Position numbers and translations under genes: made by a program. 57,829 nt of DNA, taken from the IMG/VR virus record IMGVR_UViG_3300001683_000002, positions 1 through 57,829 of that record. One strand, 5' to 3'. Below, in pieces: positions 2,691-57,829 of the stretch (positions are counted from its first letter, which is position 1; every line of letters begins with the position of its first letter). The DNA is from a virus. Its lineage: Duplodnaviria > Caudoviricetes. The notes below the pieces were generated by a model, which was not told the origin of the DNA, searched no databases, and saw nothing but the letters and a program-made list of their open reading frames with translations.

Positions 2691-3635
2691 ATGGCTGGTC
2701 AAGTATGGGGAACCAATTCACTTGGTGGATATATGTACAGTTTAAACCTTTCTAAAGAGTTGCGCCAGGCAGTGCAACCTATGGTAAAGTTTAGACAGTT
2801 TTGCGACGTAAAAGACGCGACACAACAAGGTAAAAAGAAAGGCGATACATTTAACTGGAACGTATACTCTGATGTTGATACACAGGGTGCAGCGTTAACA
2901 GAGAACGTAAGTATGCCTGAGACTAACTTTAACATCACACAGGGAAGCTTAACTATTACTGAATACGGTAACAGTGTTCCTTTTAGTGAGAAGCTAGACA
3001 ACTTGTCTGAGCATTCAGTTAGAGAAGTAATTAACAAAGTATTAAAGAACGATGCAAAGAAGTTATTCGATATTGCAGCACACGCTCAATTTGATGCAAC
3101 TCCTTTAACAGTAACTCCAACACTTGGAAACTCTCCAGACTCAGTAACACTTGAGACTGCGGGTCAATCTACTATTATTAACTCTATTGCAATGGGTAAA
3201 GACCATGTAAAAGCAATTAGTGACATTATGAAGGAACGTAACATCCCTACATATGCTAATGATGATTACTACTGTATCGCTCACCCTTCAACATTCAGAA
3301 GCTTCAAGAACGATCTAGAAACTATTCATCAGTACACTGATCCTGGTTTTCAGAAGATCATGAATGGCGAGATCGGACGTTATGAAGGTATGCGTTTTAT
3401 CGAGCAAACAAACATTGCGAAAGAGGCATGGACTGGTGGTTTATCTAACCAGGCATACTTCTTTGGTGAAGATACTGTTGCTGAAGCAATAGCATGTCCT
3501 GAAGAAGTTCGTGGTAAAATACCTACTGATTACGGTCGCTCTAAAGGTATCGCATGGTACTACTTAGGTGGATTTGGATTAGTACACGCTGATGCTGCTC
3601 AAGCACGTATCGTAAAATGGGATAGCTTATCTTGA
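2691..3635 (+). CDS. Major capsid protein (N4-gp56-like family)
   Basis: 314 aa; FRQFCDVK, G.TFNWN.Y, EYGNSV, GEIGRYEGMRFIE and DYGRSKGIAWY motifs; GGAG RBS; followed by a terminator. Confidence 0.88.
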   Translation: MAGQVWGTNSLGGYMYSLNLSKELRQAVQPMVKFRQFCDVKDATQQGKKKGDTFNWNVYSDVDTQGAALTENVSMPETNFNITQGSLTITEYGNSVPFSEKLDNLSEHSVREVINKVLKNDAKKLFDIAAHAQFDATPLTVTPTLGNSPDSVTLETAGQSTIINSIAMGKDHVKAISDIMKERNIPTYANDDYYCIAHPSTFRSFKNDLETIHQYTDPGFQKIMNGEIGRYEGMRFIEQTNIAKEAWTGGLSNQAYFFGEDTVAEAIACPEEVRGKIPTDYGRSKGIAWYYLGGFGLVHADAAQARIVKWDSLS

Positions 3636-23599: not shown

Positions 23600-26500
23600 A
23601 TGCCTGAAAATAAGAACCTAAAGAAAACAAGTACAGACGCTGCTGCAATGGGACTCGATCCTTACGCAGCTCTGGATAATGATCCATTAGCGGTCTTAGA
23701 AAACGATCCATATGCAGCGCTAGACGGTGACTTTGGTGTAGAGCCAGCACCATTAGCTTTAGCTCAACCCGAAAGAACGATAGGCGGAACCCTTGGGGAT
23801 ATAGGAGTAACCGGACTAAAGTCAGCTGTAGGATTGGTTGAGGCTGGTATTGGTTTGGCTGACATTCCAACCCTGGGTTATGCTGGAAAAGCCGCAGAGG
23901 CACTAGGTATTAGAACCAAGGATACCCAGGATATATTAGAGAACTTGTATAGTCCTGCTCAGAAGTATGCAGACAAGCAAGTATCTGACGCTAAGGGTTT
24001 TGTGGACACAGTCGGGGCGGGTCTCAGCAATCCATCAACTATACTAAAAGCAGCAGGAGAGTCCGCAGCCTTAATGGGTGGCGGTGGTGTTATTGCGCGT
24101 GGAGTACTTGCGGCAAAAGGTATAACATTGGCTAACGCAACTGCAGGACAACTAGGTCTTGCATCAGCTATAGGTGAGGGTGCTGTCGGAGCAGGTTCAG
24201 CAGCAGAAGGATCAAGACAAGGAACTACAGATGGCTTATTAACTCCTAAGCAGTCAGCTCTAGCGATTGCGACCGGTATAACTACTGGTGCGTTCAACAG
24301 GGTTGGTAGTAAGCTTGCAAACAAATTTGGCTTTGACGATATAGATCAAGTCATAGCTCGTGGTGCCCGAAGCGGAGAAACAACATCAAAGACCATTGGT
24401 CGTAGAATGGCTGAAGGTGGTATATCGGAAGGCTTGTTCGAGGAACTACCACAAAGTGTTGCAGAAACAATCCTTAGCAACGCAGCTATGGATCTTCCAC
24501 TTATGCAAGGTGTCCCGGAAGGTGCTGCTATGGGTCTATTGACCGGTGGTGCAATGGGTATGGCAATCAACGCTAGGCCTACTAGAAAGCCCAACGCTCC
24601 AATAGGCAACGCACTGGATCAAGCGCAACTAGCTCTACCGGCTCCAGGACAGGTTCCTATATTAGCAGGTTATGATAATCAAGATGAAGCACAAGCAGAA
24701 CGAACAGAGGCAGATGGACAAAGACTAGCCCAGCGCTTCTTTAACAAAGCCAATCCCGGAAAGGATGAAGAGATAGATACTACTGACTTTAAAGCGCAAG
24801 CGATAGCAAGTGGTCAATCACAATCAGCGGTCGATAGTTTTCTAGAAGGTCTTGATACACCTATCGAGCCTAACACTACAGGACTACAGGACGGCATTAA
24901 TCCACAGGACGTAATCAGTCAGCAAGAAGAAGGTAAGCTGAAGCAAGCCCAGATGGATTCGGACTTTGAAGGAAGAGAGCAAGATCCTACACAACCTGCT
25001 AAGGACTTTGTTACGTTTGCAAACGAGAAAGGATTATCACGTAAAGAGCGTAAGGCACTACGTAAGTTCATGGCAGACCAACAGATGTCGAGAAGAGCTA
25101 AAGATAACTTCATAGCTAAACTACAGGAAGGAACAGACCAGAACACCCAGGACAATACCCAGGAAGAGAGTATTGTGGACATAGCCCTAAAGGAAGCGAG
25201 CAAGCTCAAACAGAGCGGAGAAGTGGCTAACACTCAACTATCATCAGCACTAACAAAGGCAATCAATGAACCAATCATCAGCGGAAACACTAACAACGAT
25301 ATCAATACTAACGGGTCTAGTGGAAGCACAGAGTCAAGCGTTAACACGGATGGAGTCGGAAATAATCTCGTTACGGGTAGAACTAACGAATCAGAAGTAC
25401 TTGATGGAGCTAGCAATACCGAAGCAGGAGTTGAAGCAACTCATGCCGCCGTACCAAAATTAATTAATCAAACCAGAGAAAACATTAATGAGCAGAAAGA
25501 AACGGAAAGCAAAAAAACGGCAGTTAAAGCGGAATCAGGAGAACAAATAAATGAAATTTACAATAGCTCCATTACACCCACCAATCAGATCAAAGCTACA
25601 GAAGCTGAGATCGAATCAGGGGTCATCGGTCAAAGTCAAGATAGCTCTAAGCCTTTGGAACAAACGGTGGCGAGTCCTGCTGTCAAAAAAGAAGCGATTC
25701 TAACGCAGAAGAAAAACAGATACATTAACAATCAAATTAAAGCTGCTGGTTTAAATAAAAATTCACCTGGGTACGATAATGCTGTCAATACTTTACAAAA
25801 GCAGTATAATAAAGATCTCGAAAAAGCAGAGTTTTCTTTGCCGTTCGAGGAATTTAAAAAGCTACCTGGTAATCGCAAGCAGAGTGATGGGGTTGTACGT
25901 GAGGTCTATGATACTGTTCGTGCGGAACTGGGGATACAAACTAATAAAACACAGGATAATAATGAGCATAGCCCAGAAACCAAAAAAAGTACCACCAACA
26001 CAGCCGCCGTGGGAAACGGAGAACCAACGGCAACTAGAGTACCTGATGGAGCATCAACCACCAATAAAGAAGAAAAAGTAAGTGCGCCTGTAGAAGAAAC
26101 AACGGAAGTTTTAGCTAACACAACAAAGGGCACTAGTACTAGGCTTGATCGCAAGACAAAAAAGGTCTCACCCAAGAAGCGCAATTACTCAGACAGTCGA
26201 GTTGCGAGAGAAAATGATGGAGACACACAATCCTTCAGCAAGGAAGATCCAAGTGCTGATCAGCGAGATGATGTACAAGCAGTATTTACTCCTTCAAAAA
26301 AGTTAACTATGAGCGCAAAGCTAGGCGGTATGACTGCCAGTCCAATGACTGAGCTTAAGCCTACGAATAAATCAGTGCGTAAGTTTCTTGCAGGAATGAA
26401 GAAAGCAAAGGCAGGAAAATTCGGAGCAGCAGTTTTTGTTTATGAGGCTTCAGAATATAAGAAGATGAGAATGTTCTTATCTAGTGATGGTCAGAGTGGG

Positions 26501-29500
26501 TTCGCAGTTAAGCCTGATGGTGATATAGTTAGTGTATTTAATCATGCTGGTGGTGGTAGAGTTAACCCAATGATGGAACTAGCAGTACAGGAAGGCGGAA
26601 CAAAACTTGATGCGTTCGATACAGCACTAGTTGACATGTACGAACTAAGTGGATTCAAGCCAACAAAAATGGATCCTTGGGACGAAGCTTACAAGCCAGC
26701 TGGCTGGAGTAAAGAAACATTTAAAGATTTTAATAACGGAGAACCTGGTGTAGTATACATGGTTCACGAGAAAGACTATAGTCCATCTAATATTTTAGCC
26801 AGTAAAAAGACAAAGGAAACAAGCAATGACAGTACCACAGGAAAAGAACAACAGAGTAGAGACGGAAGCGGACGGAGTTCTAGCCGGGACACTTCGCGTC
26901 TTGAAGGCGCACCAGAGATTAAGGGAGCGTCAGGACAAGATAAAGCAATCGTCGAAGTCGCACAGCAATACGCAAAAGACAACGGAATAGATCTAAAGAG
27001 ACAGTCAGACTATGTCGAGGTGGATTTTGAACTCGCAAAGAGGATAGCCCAGGCATACGAAGATATGGAGCACAAGCCGTCTGATCCTGTTGTTGCTGAA
27101 GCGTACCAGAACCTAATCAAGCAAACTAGAGCCCAGTATGATGCACTAGTTAAAGCTGGATATGAGTTCTACTTTGTTAATGCAGCGGACGCTATCGACT
27201 TCCTGTCTAGTCCTTTTAATGCTATGCGTGAACTACGTCAAGCTAAAAAGCTAGGCGTGTTTCCAACTGTAGATGGATTTGGCGAAGAGAATTCAAAGCT
27301 TGATGTGTCCGACAACCCATTGCTAGCTGACACTGGTATAGTATGGAATGACATCCAGGGCAACAAAAAGAAAGTATTAGCAAATGATCTATTCCGTGCA
27401 GTACATGATGTCTTCGGGCATGGCACAGAGGGGTCAGGATTCCGTGCGCGTGGAGAAGAGAACGCATGGCAGGCACACAGACGCTTATTCACTGGATCCG
27501 CTGTAGCGGCTATCACCTCTGAGACACGAGGACAGAATAGCTGGTTAAATTACGGCATTCACGGAGAAACTAATCAGACTGCTCAGATAGAGGATACAAT
27601 CTTTGCAGATCAGAAGACAGGGTTAATGCCTGAGTTCACATGGACAGAAGGTGTTGCGGGTGACGAAGGTGTGCTTCAGTCTAACAGCGATACAAAGACT
27701 GGATCTACAGTAGAACAAATAGAAGCGCTCATACCTAGACGTACCAAAAAGCTGCTTGATAGCGGTAGGCTAGAGGTCGTGCAGTCTGTAACCGATATTA
27801 GCGATAACTCATATTCATTTACTAGCAATGATGGTCTTGAGGGATTTTATGATCCTAAGACTGATAAGCTATATTTAGTAGCTGACATGCTAGACAAGGA
27901 GAACTTCTCTAGTGTATTGAACCACGAGCTATTCCATAGAGCAAGACGCACAGATAAGAAGCTAAAGAGAAACCTGGCTGAGATAGATAGAAGACTTCAA
28001 GCTAGATTCAACTTAGCAGCGGAAGGCAAAGGTACTGCAGCAGAGCAGGCAGCCTACAAGCGAGTGATGGATGCCAATACTCCAGCTAAAAACCAGCTAG
28101 AGGAATTCCAGGCGTACATGATCACTGACTATAATCAATCACCTAGATCTTTAAGTGCCTCAATGAGACGTTTAATGAAAGATCTGATATCACTGATAAG
28201 GGCATCATTGATTCGTCAAGGAGTGCCTCTAAAGAACATAACAGCTTCCGACTTAAATGCCTTGGCTCAGTACGGCTCAGACAAGCAAACAACCAGCGTT
28301 GCATCAGCAGGTGATACCCTGGTTGGATTAGCCAGCAGAAAAGGATACAAGGGCAATAGCACTAAAGGGGCTAAAGCTTTCCTTACTGGTGATATATACG
28401 GGCGTAAAGCTAGTAATAGTAAGACAGAAGTTTTAGCTAGTACAGCACAGGAAGTGAAGAACGAGAGAGCTAAACGTCTAGAAGAAATAATATTCAGAAA
28501 GACAGGGAAAGATACAGATGATGACATTGACTCAACTCCTCGTCCGGACGATCTTCTAGCTAGTACAGCTGAAATTGCTGCTGAAGCACTTCCTTCTAGT
28601 GGCCTTCACGGAGGCAGGATTATAAAGCAGTGGTCTAAGGATCTCCAGAAGGAGTACCATGACGCAGTGTTTGATGTAATCACCAAGGGTGGAGTGAATG
28701 CAGTATTAAAGCTAGCAGGACTTACTCAAACAAGCACAGTAACAGCACCAAGCTCATACCAGGGTCACGTTGGATCGGTTGAGCAAATCAGTGTTGACGT
28801 TGAAACAACTGTTGACTCCAATGGTATGGAGACCCCAACGCAAGAGTCTAAAGATAAGCTAGAACTAGCGTCAGCAATGCTGGGATACGTCCTTGACCAA
28901 GATGCGGTCGTTGACAGATATCTAGAGCCAGTATCTGCGGGGAGCGACAATATTAACGCTATCAGCTTAAACTATGATAGAGTGCTAACAGGTAATGAAG
29001 TCAAGAACATGATGTCTCATATTGATGTACTGTCTAAAGAGATGGGCTTTGATCCGGAGATGATTGCTATCCCTACCAGTAAGACAGGAGTGGATGTTCT
29101 TAATCTTTCGCCTGATACTATTAGCACTGACATGCTAATTGATATTTCAAGGAGTCTTGCGGCGCAAGTAAACGGAGACTCAAAAACTATATACGCGCAT
29201 AACGCGCTAACGGAGAACGGATATGTCGGGTCAGATAATTTCAGAGAAGGGCAGAGAGCGTATAGCAAGGTCAGAGCGCGGTGGCAGAACCAAAGTAGTG
29301 ACGGAGATAACTCCAGAGCTTCAGGACAGCATGAACCAAAGTGGGACGATAGTACTATTGAGTCGCTCAGAGGAGAAACTAGAAAAGTAACGGAAGAGTT
29401 TCTAGGTAAGCACCACCCGCAAAATAAGAAAACAACTCGTCAGTTTGCTGAACTGATTGACGCCAGGGTAAAGAGCGAGAACGGTACACTTGACGTAAAG

Positions 29501-32500
29501 GATTACTCAGAGAAGGCAATCCAGACAGTTACCAGTAAGCTATTGAGCGAGACTCAAGCTATATTAGAAGGTGGTGATAAAGACGCCATTGGCTGGTATA
29601 CATCAAAGTACAATGATGCTATTAATTTATTGTCAAGACGATTCCCTGAATTTAAGAAGAACGGCGACGCAAGAAACCTGTTCACGGCTATAGTTGCCAT
29701 CACTTCGGACGGAACCTCTGTAAAGGACAATCTGAAATACGCAGTAAAAATATACAAAGAGTACAAGAAGACGGGCAAGCTAGATTCAGTGGGCTTGGGT
29801 GGCGAGAGAGCGGCAAGCTACAAGGCTAACCTCAAACTATTAAGCGGCATAATTGATGAGCATGGTGTTGATGGAATGGTTAACTACCTGACAGAAACCA
29901 TGACCGCTGGTGAGCTTGAAAAAGAATCAGCGTCTATTCTGGGTAAGCCGAAGACGGTTGGCTATCCAAATGAAACAATTGTGCCACGGTCTATGTTATT
30001 CGGAGATAAGCTAGGTGCATTCTTCGCTAACCTTATGGGTCATCCTGATTATCTAACTATGGATAGATGGTGGTCTAGAACCTTCAATCGTCTACGTGGA
30101 CAAATGAGAGCTAACCCAGCTACAGACTCCTCTTGGAAGAGGCTTGCCGAAGCAATAAGGAAAGAGCATCCAGAAGAGAAGCTTGCAAAGTCCCCAAGAA
30201 AAGCCACGCTTCAGAAGCTGGCTACAAAGTACCAGAAGACTTACAAGGCTAGTGGTTTTAAGGATAAGACCGCAACAAATAAAATAGCTAATACTATCAT
30301 GAAAGCTGAGACAGGTCTTAGGGATATACCAGACGGCAAGAGAGGAAGAGCCTTTATGCTTGAGGTTTCGCAGAGAGTCACTGAGGAGTTGAAAAAAGAA
30401 TACCCAGATATGACTGTCGCGGACATGCAAGCGGTGGTGTGGTTTGGGGAAAAGCGACTGTTCAATGAGAACGGCGTCATCTCAACTAAAGCATCTGCTG
30501 AGTCAGACTATAGCGATGCGGCAGCTAACCTTGTCGAGGATGATGCGCCTGTTGATAGAAAGAATATGTCTCACTCTGATGTGCTTAAGCGCGTACCGCA
30601 GCTAACAGAGGCGGCTAAACAGCTGGAGCAGGGTACGATTACCAAGAAAGAATATGCGGAGGTTGTGAAGAAGTATAAGCCTATATTCAAGATTGATGAG
30701 CTACCTGACTCAGCAACCAATGAGCAGATGACTCAAGCCTTAACAAAGGACAAAGTTGAACGTATAGGTATGCCAGTTAAGACCGGCGAGAGAGTTGGAT
30801 TACGATTAGATATACCCGCTTATAAAGAGTCAGGCGTGTGGATTCCAGCTACTCATGTGGCGGGTAGCGGTAATTCATTTAATCCTACAGCTAGAATAAC
30901 TGATGTAAAATTCCTAGATACCAAGAAGGCTGCACTTAACGTAGCAACTGGTGCAAAAAGTAAATCGCCATTTGCTACAATTAAAGGCTCTTATGTTCAA
31001 GGCACTACGGAAGAGAATAGAGCTTTAGCTAAAGAGGCGATGAATAGTCCTGAGTGGATCCAGGTGGGCTTTGACCCTGAGCGTCACAGTTACTTCTACG
31101 ATAGAACTCCTGATGCTAATGGTCATCATAATCCTGTAGCGGCTGCAGATGAAGCGATACAGATCGGGCAGTTAGTGTTAGCCAAGAACCCAGTTTACGC
31201 TAACGAAGATGAAGTATTATTTAGCCGAAAAGCAGTAACCAAAGAAGCTCATGCAGTAGCACAGAATAACGCAACTCTACCTAAGAGCCAGGGAGGCTTA
31301 GGCTTGCCTGCGAATAACACAGCTAAAGACAGAGCTAGGGCTATGGGGTTTGATGTTGATACAGTTTGGTACAGAGGGGTTACGGGTGATTTAGCTGAAG
31401 CTAACGGCTCGTTGCAGGGGCGCGATACTTATAATGGACAGAGGGGTGGACTACAATTCTTCTCCGAAAACCCGGACATGGCAAGTACATTTGCCAACAC
31501 TGATGCAGGGCGCGTTTACCCTGTATATTTGAAACTCAGCGATGTAAAGCAGTTTCCAGTGGGGAAGGAAGGGCGCTTTAGTAAGACAGGTTTTGATGAT
31601 GCCGCGTTAAAGCTAGACGAAGGTCAGGCATTAATGGCGCGTAAAGTTATTGATAGCGGCGCTTATGTTGACAAGACCCTTGACCCTAACAGCCTATGGA
31701 GTTACAACGCTGATCAAGTCGCTATAAGAGGAGATAAAAACATACGCTCAATACACGCAGCTTTCGATCCTATGCTTGCGGATGAGCCTACTCTTCTTTA
31801 TTCTATAAAATCCACAGCACAGAAGAACGCGGCTCTACCTAAGAGCAAGGGAGGCTTAGGCTTGCCTGAGGGTAACACAGCTAAAGACAGAGCTAGGGCT
31901 ATGGGGTTTGATGTTGATACCACTTATTATCGCGGGACGACGGAGGCATGGTCAGAAGATGGTGATCTGACTGGCGTTTACTACACCTCTGATCCTGAAT
32001 ATGCGTCAAGCTATTCGGACGGAGAGGAAGGCCAGATGGTCATTCCCGTTTTCCTAAACACAGAACATTTCAAAATTGAGACTGATATAAATGATGTTAC
32101 TGACTGGAACTTCAACCAAGATGAGCTGGCAGCTCAGGGCTATACCGGAGTAATGCACGAAACGGATGACGTAGCTTTCATATTTTCAGATAAATACAGA
32201 CGGAACACGCCGAAAGCCAGCTCAAACATTCGCTCAATACACGCAGCTTTCGATCCTATGCTTGCTGATGATAGTAACCTTCTAGCTAGCACAATAGAGA
32301 AACGTAAGCCAGTAAAGAGAAAGCCAGTATCAAAAAGAAAGAAAGCCCCTAGCAAGATTAAAGGGACTAATGCTACATGGCGCGATAGACCAGGCTTTGA
32401 AGGTGTTACTGAGGCAGGCTTTGCAGCACTAGGAAAGATAGGCGCTCCATTGACTGGGAATTTTGTAGAAAAAACTAAAGCAGCGGTTAAGGACGCATCA

Positions 32501-34912
32501 ACTTTATGGCGTAGAAAAGTAAGACAATACGGTGTCGATCAGTTCGACTCGTTTAAAAACATCTTAGGAGATAAAGAGTCATGGATGATGGCTCATATAA
32601 GCGGCACAGGATCTAGCGTGGTCGAAGCACTTACGGAATTCGGTAGACCATTACTGGATTGGTCTGGTGCTGTCAAGGTTGACATGAAGAAGAAAAGCCT
32701 AGCACAGATCTTTGAGCCACTAGGCACAGAGACAGATAGGTTCTTGATGTGGGTAGCGGGTAATAGAGCGGAAGGTCTGAAGGTTGATGACAAAGAGCAT
32801 CTATTTAACCACGCTGAAATAGCAGAGCTTAAGCGCTTGTCTGATGGCACGAAGGATGGCAAGAGTCGCTTAGCACTATATAAGGAAGTGCTTGTAGAGT
32901 TTGAAGCTATGCATAATGCTGTAGTTCAAATCGGTGTTGATACAGGACTAGTTAGTAAAGAAGACGCCAAGATCTGGAAGGATCAGGGTTTCTACGTTCC
33001 ATTTTACCGCATAGCTGAAGAGTCAAGCGATCACCAGGGTAAAGGTGTTCCGTCAGCGAGTGGACTTCAAGGACAAGAAGCGTACAAAAAACTCAAGGGT
33101 GCTGATATGCAGCTTGATGATTTACTAGTTAATACCATGATGAATTGGACGCACTTAATCGGAGCATCACTAAAGAATCAGGCTGCTAGTAAAGCGTTAG
33201 TACAGGCTGTGAAGCTTGGGATAGCTACACCAGTAAAGGAGTCAGAGCGAGGCGAGAAGGCTATCTTCGTTCGTGTAAATGGCCAGAAGCAGTACTATGA
33301 TATTGTTGATACTACAGAAGGTAGATTAGTCCTTGACTCTCTAACATCTCTGAACTTTGACGGTCTGAATGGTACGCTAATGAAAGTAATGCGTAAGTTT
33401 AAACGTGCCTTAACTATTGGTGTAACAGCGTCCCCTGAATTTAAGGTCGCTAACCTACTACGAGATACGCTTCAAGCAATAGCGGTAGCTGACATGAGTA
33501 CCAATATAGGTAGGAACCTTGTAGAGGGATACAAGGCGACATCTAAAGACAATCCGATTATAGCCCAGATGATTGCTGGTGGTGGCGCGTTCGGTGACTC
33601 CGGGTATATTTCTGGTGGCGATCCAGATGCTATCAAAGCTAGTCTGAAAAAGGGAATACCTAGCTCGTCTATACTTAATACAGATAGTAAGATAAAGAAA
33701 ATGTGGGATGCATATCAGGACGTAGGCGCTAGAGCGGAGAACATTAACCGTGCAGCTAACTTTAAGCAAGCACTAGAAAAAGGAAAGAGTTTACTAGAAG
33801 CTAACTTTGAAGCTCGTGATCACCTAGACTTCACTAGATCAGGTTCAGCTGTTTCAGTGAGAGCTATATCTCAAATGGTTCCGTTCTTAAACGCAAGGCT
33901 ACAGGGTCTTGATAAACTTAGTCGTGCTGCTATGGATCCGGAGCAGAAGGGACAGTTTGCAGCGGTCGTCGGTATGTATTCGCTAGCATCAGTGCTTCTA
34001 TACTTAGCTATGCGTGGAGACGAAGACTATGAAGAAGCTGAAGACTGGGAGCGTGATACGTACCATCTGTTTAAGCTTCCTGGTAGTGACATCATGTACA
34101 GATTCCCAAGGCCTTTTGAAGTTGGAGCTATAGGTAGTATGGCTGAACGATTCGTGGAGCAGCTAGTTGATGATAAAGTTCATGGTGAGTTATTTGCGGA
34201 AAGACTAATGCATACAATTTTTCAGACATTCGCAATGAACCCTACACCTCAGTTGTTCAAGCCTCTCGTTGAGACCTGGGCTAACAAGAGTTGGTTTACT
34301 GGACGTGGCATAGAGTCCCAGTCAATGGAGCGCTTATCTAAAGTGAACCGTAAGAAGGCCTGGACGTCACAGACAGCTATAGGTTTGAGTACCGCTATGG
34401 ATGCAATTTTATGGGATGACGTAGTACTTAGTCCTGTTCAGATAGATCACCTTGTGAAGGGCTACCTGGGCTGGTTAGGAGCAACTACTCTAGCTGGTAT
34501 CGATACGCTCGCAAGACCTGCGTTAGGCGTTGCTGAGGCTCCAGACATGGAGATACAAGATCTAGCAGTGGTAGGAAGGTTTGCCAGAGAGGGTAAGGCT
34601 CGAAACTCAAAATTCATTAGCCAGTTTTATGAGAACCAACGTGACCTTAATCAAAAGTTTGCAGACATTAAGCACTACAGAGATAACCAGGAGTATAAGA
34701 AGGCAGCGGCGGCACTTCAGCTTCACGGTAACGAGCTTCGGAACCGCAAAGCTTTCAATCGTGTTGGTAAGCGATTATCAGATATAAACAAAAAAATTAG
34801 ACTGATAACAGCAAGCAAGAGAATGTCGGGTGCTGCAAAGAGAGTTGCGATTAATCGCCTTAATAGGCAGCGCATCTTAATAACTAAGAGAGCTGCCAGG
34901 CTTCTTGAGTAA
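23600..34912 (+). CDS. 3770-aa polyvalent (DarB-like/LPD38-type) internal virion protein
   Basis: G/A-rich N-terminus; GNAT-like segment (~26360-26790); HDVFGH domain; HELFH zincin motif (~27922); HhH-glycosylase-like segment (~29500-30530); two ART-like domains (31259-32280); C-terminal PFLNA.LQG, PRPFEVG and SP.QIDHL..GY.G motifs of LPD38 type. Confidence 0.8.
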   Translation: MPENKNLKKTSTDAAAMGLDPYAALDNDPLAVLENDPYAALDGDFGVEPAPLALAQPERTIGGTLGDIGVTGLKSAVGLVEAGIGLADIPTLGYAGKAAEALGIRTKDTQDILENLYSPAQKYADKQVSDAKGFVDTVGAGLSNPSTILKAAGESAALMGGGGVIARGVLAAKGITLANATAGQLGLASAIGEGAVGAGSAAEGSRQGTTDGLLTPKQSALAIATGITTGAFNRVGSKLANKFGFDDIDQVIARGARSGETTSKTIGRRMAEGGISEGLFEELPQSVAETILSNAAMDLPLMQGVPEGAAMGLLTGGAMGMAINARPTRKPNAPIGNALDQAQLALPAPGQVPILAGYDNQDEAQAERTEADGQRLAQRFFNKANPGKDEEIDTTDFKAQAIASGQSQSAVDSFLEGLDTPIEPNTTGLQDGINPQDVISQQEEGKLKQAQMDSDFEGREQDPTQPAKDFVTFANEKGLSRKERKALRKFMADQQMSRRAKDNFIAKLQEGTDQNTQDNTQEESIVDIALKEASKLKQSGEVANTQLSSALTKAINEPIISGNTNNDINTNGSSGSTESSVNTDGVGNNLVTGRTNESEVLDGASNTEAGVEATHAAVPKLINQTRENINEQKETESKKTAVKAESGEQINEIYNSSITPTNQIKATEAEIESGVIGQSQDSSKPLEQTVASPAVKKEAILTQKKNRYINNQIKAAGLNKNSPGYDNAVNTLQKQYNKDLEKAEFSLPFEEFKKLPGNRKQSDGVVREVYDTVRAELGIQTNKTQDNNEHSPETKKSTTNTAAVGNGEPTATRVPDGASTTNKEEKVSAPVEETTEVLANTTKGTSTRLDRKTKKVSPKKRNYSDSRVARENDGDTQSFSKEDPSADQRDDVQAVFTPSKKLTMSAKLGGMTASPMTELKPTNKSVRKFLAGMKKAKAGKFGAAVFVYEASEYKKMRMFLSSDGQSGFAVKPDGDIVSVFNHAGGGRVNPMMELAVQEGGTKLDAFDTALVDMYELSGFKPTKMDPWDEAYKPAGWSKETFKDFNNGEPGVVYMVHEKDYSPSNILASKKTKETSNDSTTGKEQQSRDGSGRSSSRDTSRLEGAPEIKGASGQDKAIVEVAQQYAKDNGIDLKRQSDYVEVDFELAKRIAQAYEDMEHKPSDPVVAEAYQNLIKQTRAQYDALVKAGYEFYFVNAADAIDFLSSPFNAMRELRQAKKLGVFPTVDGFGEENSKLDVSDNPLLADTGIVWNDIQGNKKKVLANDLFRAVHDVFGHGTEGSGFRARGEENAWQAHRRLFTGSAVAAITSETRGQNSWLNYGIHGETNQTAQIEDTIFADQKTGLMPEFTWTEGVAGDEGVLQSNSDTKTGSTVEQIEALIPRRTKKLLDSGRLEVVQSVTDISDNSYSFTSNDGLEGFYDPKTDKLYLVADMLDKENFSSVLNHELFHRARRTDKKLKRNLAEIDRRLQARFNLAAEGKGTAAEQAAYKRVMDANTPAKNQLEEFQAYMITDYNQSPRSLSASMRRLMKDLISLIRASLIRQGVPLKNITASDLNALAQYGSDKQTTSVASAGDTLVGLASRKGYKGNSTKGAKAFLTGDIYGRKASNSKTEVLASTAQEVKNERAKRLEEIIFRKTGKDTDDDIDSTPRPDDLLASTAEIAAEALPSSGLHGGRIIKQWSKDLQKEYHDAVFDVITKGGVNAVLKLAGLTQTSTVTAPSSYQGHVGSVEQISVDVETTVDSNGMETPTQESKDKLELASAMLGYVLDQDAVVDRYLEPVSAGSDNINAISLNYDRVLTGNEVKNMMSHIDVLSKEMGFDPEMIAIPTSKTGVDVLNLSPDTISTDMLIDISRSLAAQVNGDSKTIYAHNALTENGYVGSDNFREGQRAYSKVRARWQNQSSDGDNSRASGQHEPKWDDSTIESLRGETRKVTEEFLGKHHPQNKKTTRQFAELIDARVKSENGTLDVKDYSEKAIQTVTSKLLSETQAILEGGDKDAIGWYTSKYNDAINLLSRRFPEFKKNGDARNLFTAIVAITSDGTSVKDNLKYAVKIYKEYKKTGKLDSVGLGGERAASYKANLKLLSGIIDEHGVDGMVNYLTETMTAGELEKESASILGKPKTVGYPNETIVPRSMLFGDKLGAFFANLMGHPDYLTMDRWWSRTFNRLRGQMRANPATDSSWKRLAEAIRKEHPEEKLAKSPRKATLQKLATKYQKTYKASGFKDKTATNKIANTIMKAETGLRDIPDGKRGRAFMLEVSQRVTEELKKEYPDMTVADMQAVVWFGEKRLFNENGVISTKASAESDYSDAAANLVEDDAPVDRKNMSHSDVLKRVPQLTEAAKQLEQGTITKKEYAEVVKKYKPIFKIDELPDSATNEQMTQALTKDKVERIGMPVKTGERVGLRLDIPAYKESGVWIPATHVAGSGNSFNPTARITDVKFLDTKKAALNVATGAKSKSPFATIKGSYVQGTTEENRALAKEAMNSPEWIQVGFDPERHSYFYDRTPDANGHHNPVAAADEAIQIGQLVLAKNPVYANEDEVLFSRKAVTKEAHAVAQNNATLPKSQGGLGLPANNTAKDRARAMGFDVDTVWYRGVTGDLAEANGSLQGRDTYNGQRGGLQFFSENPDMASTFANTDAGRVYPVYLKLSDVKQFPVGKEGRFSKTGFDDAALKLDEGQALMARKVIDSGAYVDKTLDPNSLWSYNADQVAIRGDKNIRSIHAAFDPMLADEPTLLYSIKSTAQKNAALPKSKGGLGLPEGNTAKDRARAMGFDVDTTYYRGTTEAWSEDGDLTGVYYTSDPEYASSYSDGEEGQMVIPVFLNTEHFKIETDINDVTDWNFNQDELAAQGYTGVMHETDDVAFIFSDKYRRNTPKASSNIRSIHAAFDPMLADDSNLLASTIEKRKPVKRKPVSKRKKAPSKIKGTNATWRDRPGFEGVTEAGFAALGKIGAPLTGNFVEKTKAAVKDASTLWRRKVRQYGVDQFDSFKNILGDKESWMMAHISGTGSSVVEALTEFGRPLLDWSGAVKVDMKKKSLAQIFEPLGTETDRFLMWVAGNRAEGLKVDDKEHLFNHAEIAELKRLSDGTKDGKSRLALYKEVLVEFEAMHNAVVQIGVDTGLVSKEDAKIWKDQGFYVPFYRIAEESSDHQGKGVPSASGLQGQEAYKKLKGADMQLDDLLVNTMMNWTHLIGASLKNQAASKALVQAVKLGIATPVKESERGEKAIFVRVNGQKQYYDIVDTTEGRLVLDSLTSLNFDGLNGTLMKVMRKFKRALTIGVTASPEFKVANLLRDTLQAIAVADMSTNIGRNLVEGYKATSKDNPIIAQMIAGGGAFGDSGYISGGDPDAIKASLKKGIPSSSILNTDSKIKKMWDAYQDVGARAENINRAANFKQALEKGKSLLEANFEARDHLDFTRSGSAVSVRAISQMVPFLNARLQGLDKLSRAAMDPEQKGQFAAVVGMYSLASVLLYLAMRGDEDYEEAEDWERDTYHLFKLPGSDIMYRFPRPFEVGAIGSMAERFVEQLVDDKVHGELFAERLMHTIFQTFAMNPTPQLFKPLVETWANKSWFTGRGIESQSMERLSKVNRKKAWTSQTAIGLSTAMDAILWDDVVLSPVQIDHLVKGYLGWLGATTLAGIDTLARPALGVAEAPDMEIQDLAVVGRFAREGKARNSKFISQFYENQRDLNQKFADIKHYRDNQEYKKAAAALQLHGNELRNRKAFNRVGKRLSDINKKIRLITASKRMSGAAKRVAINRLNRQRILITKRAARLLE
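31259..31362 (+). repeat. Left flank of ART-like cassette 1; near-identical to 31817-31920
   Basis: 104-nt repeat containing an exact 48-nt match (31315-31362 = 31873-31920). Confidence 0.92.
31745..31779 (+). repeat. Right flank of ART-like cassette 1; identical to 32231-32265
   Basis: CGCTCAATACACGCAGCTTTCGATCCTATGCTTGC, exact 35-nt match. Confidence 0.92.
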
Positions 34913-41776: not shown

Positions 41777-41805
41777 TTGCGTTTATATTTGTTTATTGAT
41801 AAACT
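41777..41805 (+). promoter_or_regulatory. Sigma70-type promoter (repeated family)
   Basis: TTGCGT-17 bp-TAAACT with an extended TG, followed by GAAGGCTAGTTA. Confidence 0.75.
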
Positions 41806-41835
41806 GAAGGCTAGTTAATTAATCAGGAGGAACAC

Positions 41836-42346: not shown

Positions 42347-42429
42347 TCCTGACCCTATGGTAAGGGGTAAGGTCTAAAAACGTCACCAGCACCCCTTAAC
42401 GGGGCGATTTCAATAATCAGAGGGTAATT

Positions 42430-42525
42430 ATGGTAGAAGCAGTAATAAGTGTGATATTAATCGTAAGCGGCTTTGCAGTCACTTTTTTATTCCATTTAAA
42501 GATAGCTGAACAGCTAGACACATAA
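42430..42525 (+). CDS. 31-aa single-TM microprotein
   Basis: GAGG RBS; MVEAVISVILIVSGFAVTFLFHLKIAEQLDT. Confidence 0.5.
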   Translation: MVEAVISVILIVSGFAVTFLFHLKIAEQLDT

Positions 42526-42547
42526 AACTTACGCAGGAAAAATAATT

Positions 42548-42571
42548 AAGCCTCTTAACTGAGGTTTTTTT
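42548..42571 (+). terminator. Intrinsic terminator
   Basis: AAGCCTC-ttaact-GAGGTTT followed by a T-run. Confidence 0.75.
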
Positions 42572-42642
42572 ATGCCTGGTGATTACGTATTGGGATTTGG
42601 AACTTATGAGAGGTAAGACTAGAGGATGGGATTATATTTTAA

Positions 42643-43005
42643 ACATAGCAAGATCATAGACCGAGAAGTGATAACCCTGTAGTGACGTGAGAAGTTGTAT
42701 ATAACTTATCTCTCATTACCAAGGGTTGATACTTTGGTCATTCATCTCATTGTGTACCGCTAGCTACGGTTAATCTATTCTCAGATAATTACAATCCGCA
42801 TAACGCCCCCGGAGCGAACGAGGTAAGGTATGCCAGCTTATTGTTTTCTGCCCAGGAAGGGCATATCACTATTCTGAATTTATCACGTGAACTGCTATGT
42901 CCACATCGCCTGGCCAACTTGCGATCTGAGTAAGACTGACTGGAATGTATATATACCACGGTAAAAATTGAATAAGCCGTATATACGTTTGTTAGTTTAC
43001 TTCTT
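42643..43005 (+). ncRNA. Candidate structured ncRNA or structured origin element
   Basis: No ORF; several long hairpins with plus-strand G-U pairs and long-range helices (see findings). Confidence 0.4.
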
Positions 43006-43242
43006 GAGTTTAGGTCAAGCTTGTAAGCAACACCTTTTGATTAGTACGAGAATGCCCCTACAGCAGGATTAAATACACTACCGGTAGGCCTGGTCATTGT
43101 ACAACTGAACACAGCACAGATGACCTGGTAAGCATTACTACGTGTCTTTCAAGTTTCGAGAGAAGCCCTTCCAGTACGACTAAATCCCTACACACCCGTA
43201 GTATAACATAAAAAACCGCGCTGAACATTAAAAAAATAAATA

Positions 43243-43271
43243 TGTACATTCGTTTGACATTTCTGTATGAT
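43243..43271 (+). promoter_or_regulatory. Putative promoter for helicase-primase
   Basis: TGTACA-17 bp-TATGAT with an upstream A-tract; overlaps the TTGAC-N18-GTCAA inverted repeat. Confidence 0.4.
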
Positions 43272-43309
43272 AGTAGGTCAATAACCGATCGCCTGGAGGG
43301 GCACAATAC

Positions 43310-44821
43310 GTGGAAATAGTACCAAGAGACTATCAAGAAAGCTTCATTCATGATATTAAGGCGGCCATACGAGCCGGTGACAAGCGAATAATTGCTTGCG
43401 CCAGCACTGGTGCAGGAAAAAGTATTGTCCTGGCTGCTATAGCACAATCAGCGCTAGCAAAAGGAAAGAGGGTGATCATAGTTCTGCCCAGGAAGTCTTT
43501 AGTCATTCAGTTGTCTGCAACTTTCGAGCAGTTCAAGATCAGACATACTATTTTAATGGCTGGAGAACCTTATCACTCGCAAGCTAGATGTCAAATCATT
43601 AGTATTGACACGTACACATCAAGACTAGCAGCGAAGAGAATGCTTTTCGTAGATGCTGACGTGCTATGTATAGATGAGATGCATGTACAGCATACAGATA
43701 CTAAAATAAAACTGTTCGATAGGTATAAAGTAATCGTAGCATTTACAGCTACTCCTGTTGCACCTAAGAAAAGACCACTGGGTGTCCTATATACTAAGAT
43801 CGTTTCATCCATATCAATGAAAGAGCTGGTGTCGATGGGGCATCTTGTGCCGTTGCGTTATTTTGCACCTTCTGATTTTCATTCAGATGATGTGAAGGTT
43901 GACGCTGAAGGAGAATATAACTCAAGACAGCTGGACGAATATATTGACGATAAGCTAAAGACGGAAGATGGAAAACTGAAGATCGTTGGAGATGTGGTAG
44001 AGAACTGGCAACGAATCGCTAGCGACAGACAGACAGTGGTCTTCTGCAAAACCCAGGCGCACTCTAGACATATACAGCAGGAATTTTTAGACAAGGGTGT
44101 CAAGGCTTTATATATAGATTGCAATACAGATATCCCTGATCGTGAGCAGATCTTTCGAGACATGGCAGAAAAGAGAGCGCAAGTCCTGGTCAATGTTGGG
44201 ATTGTTGCTATGGGGATTGACATTCCAATTTTGTCTTGTGTGATCCTGGCTACTCCGATCAATAGAATAGCTAGGTACCTACAGTGCGTAGGAAGATTAA
44301 CTAGACCGCACAAAGAAAGCGGCAAGGTTGATGGCCTGGTGATCGATCATTGTGGTATCGTTTCTAAGCTGGGCTTTGCTGATGACGAACAATTCTGGAC
44401 ACTGGACGGAGAAGAGTCACCTGAAGAGCTTAAGAAAAAAGACAAAGAAGAGAAAGAAGCACCAAAGGAAATTACATGCAGCGAGTGTAGCTTTATATTT
44501 GTTTCTCGTAAGTCATGTCCTCAATGTGCTTTTGAGATGGTTCCTTTGGGTGAGGAAATACCAGTTCATCAGGCTGAGCTAGTTGAGATCAGTGCGAAAG
44601 ATAAGGTACCATCACCGGCAGACAAGAAGGTTTTTTATTCTATGTTGTTAGGACATGCTAAGAATAAAGGATTCAAGACAGGCTGGGCAGACCATAGCTT
44701 CAAGACGAAGTTTGGTCACTTCCCTAAAACTAAAAAAGGTGTGGAGGCTATCAACCCGGACGATACTGTGTTAGGCTACATTAAACATTTGCAAATCAGA
44801 AGAGCTAGGTCGAGAAAATGA
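43310..44821 (+). CDS. SF2 (DExH) helicase with a C-terminal Zn ribbon
   Basis: PRDYQ, ASTGAGKS, DEMH, TATP, QCVGR..R, C..C...CP.C. Confidence 0.92.
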   Translation: MEIVPRDYQESFIHDIKAAIRAGDKRIIACASTGAGKSIVLAAIAQSALAKGKRVIIVLPRKSLVIQLSATFEQFKIRHTILMAGEPYHSQARCQIISIDTYTSRLAAKRMLFVDADVLCIDEMHVQHTDTKIKLFDRYKVIVAFTATPVAPKKRPLGVLYTKIVSSISMKELVSMGHLVPLRYFAPSDFHSDDVKVDAEGEYNSRQLDEYIDDKLKTEDGKLKIVGDVVENWQRIASDRQTVVFCKTQAHSRHIQQEFLDKGVKALYIDCNTDIPDREQIFRDMAEKRAQVLVNVGIVAMGIDIPILSCVILATPINRIARYLQCVGRLTRPHKESGKVDGLVIDHCGIVSKLGFADDEQFWTLDGEESPEELKKKDKEEKEAPKEITCSECSFIFVSRKSCPQCAFEMVPLGEEIPVHQAELVEISAKDKVPSPADKKVFYSMLLGHAKNKGFKTGWADHSFKTKFGHFPKTKKGVEAINPDDTVLGYIKHLQIRRARSRK

Positions 44822-45756
44822 ATATTGATATAAAAGAAGAATACAAAGGGCGCTGGGCATCCATACTGATAGGGGCTGGTGTTGATGGCAATGTACTGAA
44901 CGGTAAGCATCAACCTTGTCCTTTATGTAGTGGTAAAGACAGGTTCCGCTGGATAGCTGATACAGAGACAGCATTTTGCTCTCAGTGTGGTGTACGTGGA
45001 GGGATAGACTTCCTTATGGAGTTTGCCGGGCATTCGTTTCGAGAGGCGTGTGAATATATTAGAGGTGAAAAAGTGGAATATAAACAGCAAGAGAAGAAGA
45101 TTAAGGTCAACCCGATCAACAGATTGAAACAGATACATAAAGGTCTTAAACCTATAACTCCTGGTGATCTAGTGTCTACGTACCTAGAAAGACGGGGAAT
45201 TACTAAGGTGGGTTCTGATATCTTTACGTCGTCTAGTATCCCATATTATGGTGGTTTTGTTGACGGTAAGAAAGTTACAGGAGTCTTTACAGCTATGATC
45301 GCCAGAATAACCAACCTGGACGGCAGCTTACAAAGCTATCATGTAACTTACTTAAATGATCATGGCTTTAAAATAGATTTTGCAGCAGCTAAAATTATCA
45401 TCACTCCAATGACTACTATTACAGGGTGTAGTATAAAGCTAGCTGAGCCAGTTAATGGGCAGCTGTGCGTCGCTGAGGGGCTGGAAACTGCTTTAGCTAT
45501 ACAACAGGAAGAAGGAGTACCTACTTGGTCTGCTATCAACGCCAACGGCATGATAAAAATGGAAGTGCCTAGTACTGTTACTAACGTAAATATTTTTCTG
45601 GATAACGATCAAAATTTCACTGGACATGCAGCAGCATATCAATTAGCTAATCGTTTAGCAGTAAAAGGGGTGGCTGTTACCGTCATCAATGACTGTGAAA
45701 TCGGCGACGATTATTTAGACTTAATGAATAAAAACAAGGAGTTAGGAAATAGTTAG
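44818..45756 (+). CDS. DNA primase (Zn-binding plus TOPRIM domains)
   Basis: H.PCP.C.GKDRF...CSQCG, YL..RGI, VAEGLETAL, DND, DYLD. Confidence 0.9.
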   Translation: MNIDIKEEYKGRWASILIGAGVDGNVLNGKHQPCPLCSGKDRFRWIADTETAFCSQCGVRGGIDFLMEFAGHSFREACEYIRGEKVEYKQQEKKIKVNPINRLKQIHKGLKPITPGDLVSTYLERRGITKVGSDIFTSSSIPYYGGFVDGKKVTGVFTAMIARITNLDGSLQSYHVTYLNDHGFKIDFAAAKIIITPMTTITGCSIKLAEPVNGQLCVAEGLETALAIQQEEGVPTWSAINANGMIKMEVPSTVTNVNIFLDNDQNFTGHAAAYQLANRLAVKGVAVTVINDCEIGDDYLDLMNKNKELGNS

Positions 45757-45766
45757 TTGAAAAACC

Positions 45767-45815
45767 TTGCTTTAATATTTTTTTATTGATAAACTGAAGG
45801 CCAGTTAGAAATTAA
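45767..45815 (+). promoter_or_regulatory. Sigma70-type promoter (repeated family)
   Basis: TTGCTT-17 bp-TAAACT; 45786-45815 is identical to 46831-46860. Confidence 0.78.
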
Positions 45816-46811: not shown

Positions 46812-46860
46812 TTGCTTTTCCAGGTTGGTTTTGATAAACTGAAGGCCAGTTAGAAATTAA
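46812..46860 (+). promoter_or_regulatory. Sigma70-type promoter (repeated family)
   Basis: TTGCTT-17 bp-TAAACT plus the 30-nt shared block. Confidence 0.78.
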
Positions 46861-47699: not shown

Positions 47700-48299
47700 A
47701 TGAGCAGACCAAACACTTGTAAAGAAAAAATAATCTTCGCGGTTTTTAGAGAAGGGATCGTGAACCCAGTAGACGTAGTACTAGTAGAGTTTAAGGTTAC
47801 TACTGTCATGCAGAATATATCTACACTTTTGTCAACGGGCATTCTAGTTAGAGTAGGCATCAACCGCACTGGAGCACATATCGCTCTTAGTGAAGAAGGA
47901 TTAGCAGCGTACCATGCGATACTTGAGAAGCCTGATAAAGGTGAAATAGCAACAACCAGCGCCGTTAGACTGGCTATAAAGGGAAGAGAAGAGTTTTCGC
48001 CGTCATCTATATCAGGAATTATTTTTGGTGACATTAAAGTTAGCAAGAAACAAAGGAATGGAGTTCGATATATCTTATGTCGTATGGTAAAGGACGGAGA
48101 AGTAGTTAAATTAGAAGAGGGTATATATTCAGCTACCGGAACCAGGACAGCAAGAGTAGAGCAGGGTCTGGATTATTCAAAGAATTTTAAGAACATCCAG
48201 GAGTTATATACAATCTTGCCTGGGACTCTTACTAAACACGTTCCTTTAAACGAGAGAACAGAAAATCAAATATTACTAGACTTAGTAGAGGAGGATTAA
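47700..48299 (+). CDS. Hypothetical protein, possibly tandem winged-helix
   Basis: L...GILVRVG and L.RMVKDGEV.K...G.Y wHTH-like ends. Confidence 0.5.
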   Translation: MSRPNTCKEKIIFAVFREGIVNPVDVVLVEFKVTTVMQNISTLLSTGILVRVGINRTGAHIALSEEGLAAYHAILEKPDKGEIATTSAVRLAIKGREEFSPSSISGIIFGDIKVSKKQRNGVRYILCRMVKDGEVVKLEEGIYSATGTRTARVEQGLDYSKNFKNIQELYTILPGTLTKHVPLNERTENQILLDLVEED

Positions 48300-56915: not shown

Positions 56916-57829
56916 TGACAAAGAATTCTTAGACCTGGCAAGGGACGCGTATACAACAAGCGAAACCTATGTTGACTCATTTATGCGTAAGCAATGGGAA
57001 GACGGATTAAAACAATGGCAAGGTAAACACGCAACAGGCTCCAAGTATCTAGCAGAAGGATACCGTGGACGCTCACATTTATTTAGACCACGCACTAGAG
57101 CAGTAATACGTAAGAATGAGGCAGCAGCAGCAGCAGCGTTCTTTTCAACGTCAGACGTAGTCAATATATCACCTCAAGATGACTCAAACCCATTAGACAA
57201 GCTTACGGCTGAAATAATGGACAGCTTAGTCAACTACAGATTAAATAATACTATTCCTTGGTTCATGATCCTGAACGGTGCTTATCAGAGTGCCCAGGTA
57301 ATGGGTCAGGTGTGTAGTTACCAGTCGTGGAAGTACGAGAATGGCAAGGATGAGCCATGCATTGACCTACGACCAATAGAGAACATACGAATAGATCCAG
57401 CTTCAGATTGGCTAGATCCTGTGAATTCAAGCCCTTATATCATCGATTTAATCCCTATGTACGTAGGCGACATCGAAACAAAGATGAGAGTGCCTGATGA
57501 GAAGACAGGGGAACCAGAGTGGATAGATACAGATGAAAAGACATTATTAAGTGCTACCAATGAATATTGGGATAGTACACGCATGCAAAGGGAAGATAGA
57601 GGAGATAGTAAGTCTAATCTATATACTACAAACAACAAGTTTGCCACAGCATGGGTCAGACGTAACATTATTAAAGTAGACGGTCAAGACTGGGTATTCT
57701 ATACTCTGGGCAGTGAGCATTTACTAAGTAAGCCAAAGAAGCTAGAAGAAGTATACCATACAGGCGAGAGACCATATGTGATAGGTTCATGTATATTAGA
57801 GTCCAATAGATCAATGCCTTCTAGTGTCT
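56905..57829 (+). CDS. Portal protein, N-terminal part (continues through the circular join into 1-1230; ~687 aa in total)
   Basis: ATG at 56905 after AGGAG; open to the window end in the same frame as ORF 40..1230; follows terL and precedes scaffold/capsid; RSHLFRPRTRAVIR motif typical of podovirus-type portals. Confidence 0.8.
   Translation, partial: MALNDKEFLDLARDAYTTSETYVDSFMRKQWEDGLKQWQGKHATGSKYLAEGYRGRSHLFRPRTRAVIRKNEAAAAAAFFSTSDVVNISPQDDSNPLDKLTAEIMDSLVNYRLNNTIPWFMILNGAYQSAQVMGQVCSYQSWKYENGKDEPCIDLRPIENIRIDPASDWLDPVNSSPYIIDLIPMYVGDIETKMRVPDEKTGEPEWIDTDEKTLLSATNEYWDSTRMQREDRGDSKSNLYTTNNKFATAWVRRNIIKVDGQDWVFYTLGSEHLLSKPKKLEEVYHTGERPYVIGSCILESNRSMPSSV
57739..57829. repeat. Terminal direct repeat copy of 1-91
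   Basis: Exact 91-nt match to the window start. Confidence 0.97.

Follow-up and report, generated by a model that had tools for sequence, protein, structure and literature searches.

Two strong hairpins in the largest noncoding gap of a tailed-phage genome, a possible replication-control region beside the helicase and primase genes

The largest noncoding gap in the genome of a tailed dsDNA phage lies directly upstream of the phage's helicase and primase genes. It is composed of two strong hairpins (H1 and H2) and a small one (H3) in otherwise unstructured noncoding DNA, and is not a single pseudoknotted molecule. The kinds of imperfection in H1 and H2 point to their selection for the plus strand in single-stranded form, either as RNA or as unwound DNA. 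The gap is tentatively read as a cis-acting replication-control region, most likely an origin without iterons, which would act via plus-strand RNA or unwound DNA. The finding provides no evidence for a new RNA class and is best filed under a known kind, the noncoding origin or control region located beside phage replication genes. As it stands, one apparently lineage-specific noncoding region with two real hairpins is described, which is useful for annotating the phage.

Replication origins are unknown for most uncultured phages. Modules that pair an SF2 helicase with a stand-alone Toprim primase and have no recognised initiator are widespread, and the helicase described here is matched by 2461 phage records. 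If the gap is a hairpin origin, it offers a testable example of an iteron-less replication start in such modules.

Genome setting

The window analysed here is a complete phage record of 57,829 bp. Since the record has direct terminal repeats and one open reading frame (ORF) that leaves one end and continues at the other, its start is arbitrary. Metagenomes of hydrothermal vents and marine sediments, from 14 studies, contain near-identical DNA. Isolated phages are distant relatives; the terminase is 49.7% identical to that of a Pseudomonas podovirus, and the helicase shows at most 33.5% identity to helicases of isolated phages.

The genes adjoining the gap are all located on the plus strand (Table 1). 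Upstream of the gap, they encode an RHH-like protein, a DUF6378 protein, a metallophosphoesterase and small membrane proteins, and beyond the primase they encode NinB, an HNH endonuclease, SSB, a resolvase-like protein, a DprA-like protein, an endolysin, a holin and the terminase. A leftward block (34.9-40.5 kb) encodes a Sak-like annealing protein, an exonuclease and PhoH. Among the approximately 35 genes annotated in 34.9-54 kb, several small ORFs of which have no family, none was recognised as an initiator, polymerase, RNA polymerase or integrase. After the tail genes, positions 23600-34912 contain a single ORF of 3770 aa, whose only matches are to PHROG families without known function (best match phrog_18222, E 7.6e-150, over the last 800 residues).

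Table 1. Coordinates of the gap, its structural and sequence features and the adjoining genes
Feature	Position	Strand	Remarks
Largest noncoding gap of the genome	42526..43309		784 nt from one called gene to the next; 736 nt of these follow the terminator
Intrinsic terminator (7-bp stem, 6-nt loop, T-run)	42548..42573	+	Stem 42548-42567; closes the upstream small-gene operon
Weak promoter-like match (ATGAGA, 18-nt spacer, TGnGATTAT with extended -10)	42606..42635	+	Score 9.0, in the same range as other candidates
Proposed enclosing helix, ACATAGCA / TGCTATGT	42643-50 / 42893-900		8 bp; present in the sequence
H1, irregular 81-nt hairpin, 33 pairs including 5 G-U	42659..42739	+	Fold compared with shuffles; the one clearly non-random structure among the listed parts
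Hairpin ACCG / CGGT	near 42757-71		Present in the sequence
Proposed pseudoknot pair CTCAGAT / ATCTGAG	42780-86 / 42924-30		Present in the sequence
Hairpin TGCCC-aggaa-GGGCA	42849-63		Present in the sequence
Hairpin ATCGC / GCGAT	42905-25		Present in the sequence
H2, A/U-rich 75-nt hairpin, 27 pairs including 6 G-U	42928..43002	+	Stable on the plus strand only
H3, short hairpin, arms CCTGGTCAT / ATGACCTGG, loop of about 20 nt	43087..43130		In folds of both strands
A/T-rich tract	43205..43250		Contains the least stable 40-mer of the gap (from 43227)
Promoter-like site (TGTACA, 17-nt spacer, TATGAT)	43243..43271	+	About 40 nt before the helicase start
SF2 helicase gene (ResIII / Helicase_C), C-terminal Cys-rich segment	43310..44821	+	GTG start
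Primase gene (Zn ribbon, DUF7146, Toprim_3)	44818..45756	+	Directly after the helicase gene

Extent and noncoding status of the gap

The original prediction for this DNA described an ORF-free element in an otherwise tightly packed genome, and both statements are borne out. In a gene call based on a simple codon score (85 genes), the second-largest real gap measures only 238 nt; a further listed "gap" of 635 nt (56916-57550) is an artefact of the ORF that runs off the record end. Only four ORFs of at least 30 aa touch the gap, and their codon scores are all negative. Four ORFs or stop-free stretches of the gap were compared with Pfam, and none of the four matches a family. The stop codons TAA, TAG and TGA are each present in all six frames of the gap, so that stop-codon recoding would open no frame and was rejected. 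When stops are ignored, the best 150-nt codon score in the gap is 9.6, compared with 8.8 ± 1.8 in shuffled sequences, and the 3-base periodicity is 2.26 in the gap versus 7.1 and 7.3 in the flanking genes. A comparison of the gap with 435 ORFs located upstream of the helicase in relatives gave no match better than E 0.047. A decayed protein gene or pseudogene, which the original prediction had named as one of the outcomes that would speak against it, was rejected because no signal was obtained from Pfam, codon score, periodicity or the ORFs of relatives.

A 15-codon ORF (42830-42877, ATG at 42830), preceded by a well-spaced GAGG, is present in the unstructured middle of the gap. This ORF carries no coding signal and is probably a chance occurrence. 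At the upstream edge, the 35 terminator-like nucleotides at 42541-42575 are matched by contigs with unrelated flanks in three of the four metagenome runs, and matches of 30-33 nt in the opposite orientation (81-87% identity) occur in five related viral loci (L006, L008, L010-L012). This stretch may be a terminator that co-occurring phages have in common, or one shared with a host.

Hairpins H1, H2 and H3

On the plus strand, H1 (42655-42743 folded) has a folding energy of -31.7 kcal/mol with a z-score of -5.37, and none of 200 dinucleotide shuffles was as stable; the corresponding minus-strand values are -25.3 kcal/mol and -3.27. A genome-wide scan of 90-nt windows in 10-nt steps, with GC regressed out, places H1 first on the plus strand (residual z -4.26); among 482 windows of 150 nt, which reach position 48,100, H1 ranks second. 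H2 (42924-43005 folded) has a plus-strand energy of -21.6 kcal/mol (z -3.49, 1 of 200 shuffles), versus -10.6 kcal/mol (z -0.85) on the minus strand. H3 corresponds to the minus-strand window at 43051 (residual z -2.99). The stems of H1 and H2 are interrupted by loops and bulges of 1-2 nt, and H2 has an additional 5-nt bulge.

As RNA, the plus-strand folds of H1 and H2 exceed their minus-strand counterparts in stability by 6.4 and 11 kcal/mol, respectively, and DNA folding parameters again favour the plus strand for both; a plus/minus difference of 6-11 kcal/mol is within about 1-2 standard deviations of the genome's 90-nt windows (sd 5.3). The observation that imperfect pairs are G-U on the plus strand, made in the original prediction, extends to the complete count, which gives 11 G-U pairs (5 in H1 and 6 in H2) and no A-C 1x1 mismatch. 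The rest are bulges and mismatches of the A-A, T-T and G-A kinds. Because the neutral decay of a palindrome is expected to give both G-U pairs and A-C mismatches, the ratio of 11:0 (approximately 0.001 in a two-sided sign test, for hairpins that were picked out by inspecting the plus strand) argues for selection on the plus strand.

Searches for related elements were negative. Rfam at standard thresholds gave no match in the whole window, and relaxing the E value to 10 gave only three matches, of which two are located elsewhere in the window; the three score 16-18 bits where 45-60 would be required. ARAGORN detected no tRNA or tmRNA gene in the window. The Rfam families covered include large phage-associated RNAs, introns, RNase P, tmRNA and riboswitches. 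No other copy of H1 is present in the phage genome. The best complementarity of the gap elsewhere in the genome is 20 nt, and antisense targets in the rest of the genome were rejected on this basis. No pile-up of other contigs on the H1 region (42611-42711) was observed in the four runs compared at 80% likeness, and two exact hairpin patterns had no match in 2.9 million viral contigs. A miniature repeat element (MITE or REP-like palindrome) finds no support either, as multiple copies were found neither in the phage nor in the four runs or the viral contigs.

The proposed larger fold

In the original prediction, the long hairpins were part of a densely base-paired element of 363 nt that also comprised an enclosing helix, several small hairpins and a pseudoknot. 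Every one of the listed pairings is present in the sequence, and their frequency was compared with that in shuffled sequences. The 363 nt contain one perfect 8-bp inverted repeat, against a shuffle mean of 1.16 (57% of 1000 shuffles have at least one), and ten 7-bp inverted repeats, against 4.7 ± 2.9 (6.4% of shuffles reach ten). The segment between the two hairpins (42740-42927) has a z-score of +1.70, and 190 of 200 shuffles fold as well. The z-scores on the plus and minus strands are -2.49 and -1.28 for the 363 nt, -1.98 and -2.44 for the 258-nt "enclosed" unit, and -0.89 and -0.57 for the whole 736 nt, respectively. The 8-bp helix appears in the centroid fold. Since the inverted repeats and the folds are at the level of shuffles, the enclosing helix and the pseudoknot are indistinguishable from chance, and the small hairpins do not exceed it either. 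The description as densely base-paired likewise did not hold, as the 736 nt fold no better than shuffles on both strands. The folding z-scores that had been suggested as a check gave a divided result: H1 and H2 exceed dinucleotide shuffles, and the whole gap and the inter-hairpin segment are unremarkable.

Origin and transcription signals

No iterons or tandem repeats were identified in the gap, the best k-mer having a p value of 1e-3 among 591 hexamers, which is not significant. Several repeat candidates were rejected. A 14-nt family at 257-nt spacing, considered as a tandem triplication, has members that are 79-86% identical, does not extend into an alignment, and no tandem repeat was found. 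The heptamer GTATATA has 5 of its 23 genome matches within 42697-42986 (p 1.9e-3 among 679 heptamers, not significant). The motif CCWGG occurs six times in the gap, yet is over-represented genome-wide; the whole window contains 145 copies, approximately twice the 69 ± 8.6 found in dinucleotide shuffles. DnaA boxes are absent from the gap, and their number in the genome (16) is close to expectation (15.3). The GC skew tracks gene orientation and passes through the gap without a switch. Within the gap, the least stable 40-mer ranks 479 of 57789 in the genome, several other intergenic sites being less stable.

A consensus promoter scan found no more promoter-like sites than in shuffles. The match at 42606-42635, which from its sequence would start an RNA near 42643, 16 nt before H1, is weak evidence for a promoter because ten promoter-like matches occur in 820 nt on both strands. 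The site at 43243-43271 is a candidate promoter of the helicase and primase genes. The ribosome-binding site of the helicase gene is GGAGGGG, and an 11-nt segment at 43053-63 is complementary to its Shine-Dalgarno region (43293-303), a complementarity that is estimated to be at about chance level for a 1-kb region.

A three-copy intergenic element (41777-41817, 45767-45807 and 46812-46852; about 60 nt, 81% identical overall) has been identified on the plus strand elsewhere in the window. It contains an invariant TTGC, a 17-nt spacer and TGATAAACT (sigma-70 with an extended -10), followed just downstream by a conserved GAAGGCYAGTTA. A small gene follows each copy after about 30-40 nt, and a 22-mer of the element occurs three times, against none in shuffles. 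The copies probably serve as early or middle promoters of the phage itself, sharing a leader or operator. None of the three is located in the gap, and a copy of this element there was rejected.

Relatives and population copies

A blastn search with 42400-43400 against 50,697 phage records gave no match. Searches for the helicase locus returned one locus in viral contigs (34% identity), three loci in metagenome contigs, two of which are copies with approximately 99.7% identity, and 16 loci in genome contigs, the best of which (L086) has a helicase with 54% identity. With an alignment of 19 helicases as the query, 124 relatives were found in viral contigs, of which 80 were kept (best 45%). Among 401 genomes of the order to which L086 belongs, 34 have a helicase match, the best besides L086's own genome being 39%. 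Closer helicases exist, with 67%, 62% and 55% identity; the gap DNA was compared in the approximately 99.7% copies and in relatives of 54% or less.

No DNA alignable to the gap was found in the diverged helicase relatives (54% identity or less). In 23 IMG/VR loci (from the 80 kept of 124, with 45% identity or less), only 0-76 nt upstream of the helicase gene are free of ORFs. L086 has only the helicase and primase in common with the window, and contains no DNA similar to the gap. The short ORF-free regions of the 23 relatives and the lack of similar DNA in L086 indicate that the replication module does not include the gap as a conserved element. Within the reach of these comparisons, the gap appears to be lineage-specific.

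L086 is a contig binned with a Methylomarinum MAG. Its divergent promoter region contains two blocks of 6-7-nt words ending in GCT (2720-2890). The contig also carries a terminator, a near-consensus promoter (TTGACA, 17-nt spacer, TATGAT) and then two interleaved 22-nt inverted repeats (3327-3474). The arms of these repeats (3381-3402 / 3437-3458 and 3407-3428 / 3453-3474) could form alternative or knotted structures. These L086 segments show no sequence similarity to the gap of the window.

Two metagenome contigs run straight through the gap. Among the 21 matching runs listed, none is an RNA run. The population set consists of 4 of these 21 runs and contains low-depth fragments of essentially the same sequence, in which uncovered parts (e.g., around 42932-43000 in three of the four runs) were left uninterpreted. 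Variation among the copies comprises a T>C change at 42590 in one run and the A-run at 43214-43221, upstream of the helicase promoter-like site, which is the main variable spot of the gap. The A-run has substitutions in L003 and L005 and 1-3-nt deletions (43219-43221) in one run. Inside the helicase gene, a Lys/Glu-rich coding stretch that is A/G-rich (44420-44470) draws very high summed contig depth from unrelated organisms, a low-complexity artefact that is relevant to mapping.

Possible functions of the gap

The reading as an iteron-less origin or control region is favoured by the size of the gap, its position after a terminator and before the helicase and primase genes, and its plus-strand hairpins. 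The plus strand would act in single-stranded form. A noncoding transcript, perhaps starting at about 42643 and passing through H1 and H2, would prime replication or open the DNA; alternatively, H1 and H2 would form in unwound plus-strand DNA and recruit the adjoining helicase and primase. The host polymerase and replicative helicase would then take over, a step that is proposed because neither a phage polymerase nor an initiator was recognised among the annotated genes. The helicase operon itself would probably start at the promoter-like site at 43243-43271. The lack of both iterons and a recognised initiator fits an origin that needs no dedicated initiator, and the fact that origin types have no common sequence between groups would explain why relatives show nothing alignable. 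The same reading is weakened by the lack of iterons, DnaA boxes and a GC-skew switch, by the unremarkable A/T-rich tract, by the absence of the gap in 23 relatives and L086, by the weak promoters and by the modest energy difference between the plus and minus strands.

The original prediction of a novel ncRNA or a primase/origin signal thus survives as a class, which is still the best fit to the noncoding status, H1 and the G-U bias, and loses its proposed architecture, which is at chance level. It is improbable that H1 and H2, possibly with the closing helix, constitute a new structured ncRNA that primes or licenses replication for an initiator-less SF2-helicase/Toprim-primase module in a vent and sediment phage lineage. 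If this were true, RNA priming via H1 and H2 would represent a new RNA-dependent origin type in tailed phages.

H1 and H2 could instead control the replication operon at the RNA level, as RNase III-type processing or stabilising hairpins that time the expression of the helicase and primase. The transcript would be read through the terminator from the upstream early operon or start at the weak promoter at 42606-42635. Both hairpins are plus-strand-specific, have small internal loops and, at 33 and 27 pairs, are of sufficient length for RNase III, which requires approximately 20 or more pairs of mostly continuous dsRNA. The neighbouring genes are all on the plus strand, and the layout is lambdoid-like, with divergent early operons, a Sak-like annealing protein, NinB, lysis genes and terminase; the segment at 43053-63 could pair with the helicase Shine-Dalgarno region at 43293-303. 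However, RNase III sites need about 60-100 nt, far less than the 736 nt present; on the upstream side there is a good terminator, and on the downstream side a promoter-like site separates the hairpins from the helicase gene. With the anti-Shine-Dalgarno complementarity estimated at about chance level and the remaining spacer unstructured, this kind of control is considered somewhat unlikely. The gap may also be a selectively neutral spacer, a recombination scar or what remains of an insertion lost where two modules meet, with the hairpins as functionless remnants, for example of a palindromic element. This would agree with its absence from all 23 relatives examined and from L086, with most of the gap folding like shuffled sequence, and with the lack of repeated words or protein-binding arrays. 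It is nevertheless considered unlikely in a genome that is compact elsewhere, as decaying DNA palindromes would not be expected to show the statistics of H1 or an 11:0 G-U bias, H1 is no multi-copy repeat (in the phage genome or in four runs at 80% likeness) and no pseudogene signal was found.

An independent trans-acting ncRNA gene of about 100-360 nt around H1, acting for example on the host or on a defence system, is distinctly doubtful. The z-score of H1 (-5.37) and its top genome rank, the G-U bias of H1 and H2, the promoter-like site whose predicted transcript would begin at about 42643, 16 nt upstream of H1, and the presence of helix 42643-50 / 42893-900 in the centroid fold are all consistent with such a gene. 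On the other side, Rfam contains no family for it even at E values up to 10, no terminator follows H1 or H2, the closing helix is at chance level and the plus strand of the 258-nt unit has no folding advantage over the minus strand. In addition, the best complementarity to the rest of the genome is 20 nt and the two exact patterns revealed no second copy in 2.9 million viral contigs. Physical genome ends with a fixed terminal repeat, or a packaging signal, would be compatible with the direct terminal repeats of the record, the ORF across its ends and its arbitrary start, and the genome ends of T7-like phages are located in large noncoding regions. These are very improbable in the gap, as the terminase genes are 11 kb away and two metagenome contigs cross the gap, though reads from concatemers would allow such crossing.

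Comparison with known systems

In the early transcripts of T7 and lambda, RNase III processing hairpins with 20 or more pairs and small internal loops are located between cistrons. H1 and H2 resemble them in their irregular stems, number of pairs and small internal loops, and their cleavage is putative. Unlike the T7 and lambda hairpins, H1 and H2 lie within about 700 nt of unstructured spacer downstream of a terminator.

Primosome assembly sites and single-strand origins of plasmids and ssDNA phages are ORF-free, function in one orientation only and form strand-specific imperfect long hairpins with G-T wobble pairs. The gap shares with these initiation signals its strand-specific imperfect long hairpins, G-T wobble and lack of ORFs. 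Single-strand initiation signals serve ssDNA replicons or the displaced strands of rolling-circle plasmids, whereas the gap belongs to a tailed dsDNA phage and has both hairpins on the same strand. Like the iteron-type origins of phages and satellites (P4 ori/crr, SPP1 oriL/oriR), it is a noncoding block with a long hairpin adjoining the phage's own helicase and primase genes; unlike them, it has neither an array of short direct repeats nor a second copy in the genome.

For a transcription-dependent origin (c2 PE1-T or ColE1 RNA II type), the ORF-free region is present and the flanking promoters are only weak consensus matches. The nearest precedent considered here is the origin of the Lactococcus Ceduovirus (c2-type) phages, an ORF-free and RBS-free region between two promoters. 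The noncoding transcript made there, PE1-T, is believed to initiate replication, and origin types show no sequence similarity between groups (PMC7150918). The gap has no sequence similarity to the Ceduovirus origin and no match in the phage collection. The c2 origin is located between divergent early and late modules, whereas the gap follows a terminator within a block of co-directional genes; its promoter matches are weak, whereas the Ceduovirus region is flanked by promoters. Function in Ceduovirus is ascribed there to the length and structure of the noncoding transcript, and the corresponding transcript of the gap is putative. No iteron requirement is stated for Ceduovirus, and the gap likewise has no iterons. 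The Ceduovirus origin is like the gap in being an ORF-free and RBS-free intergenic region of several hundred nucleotides.
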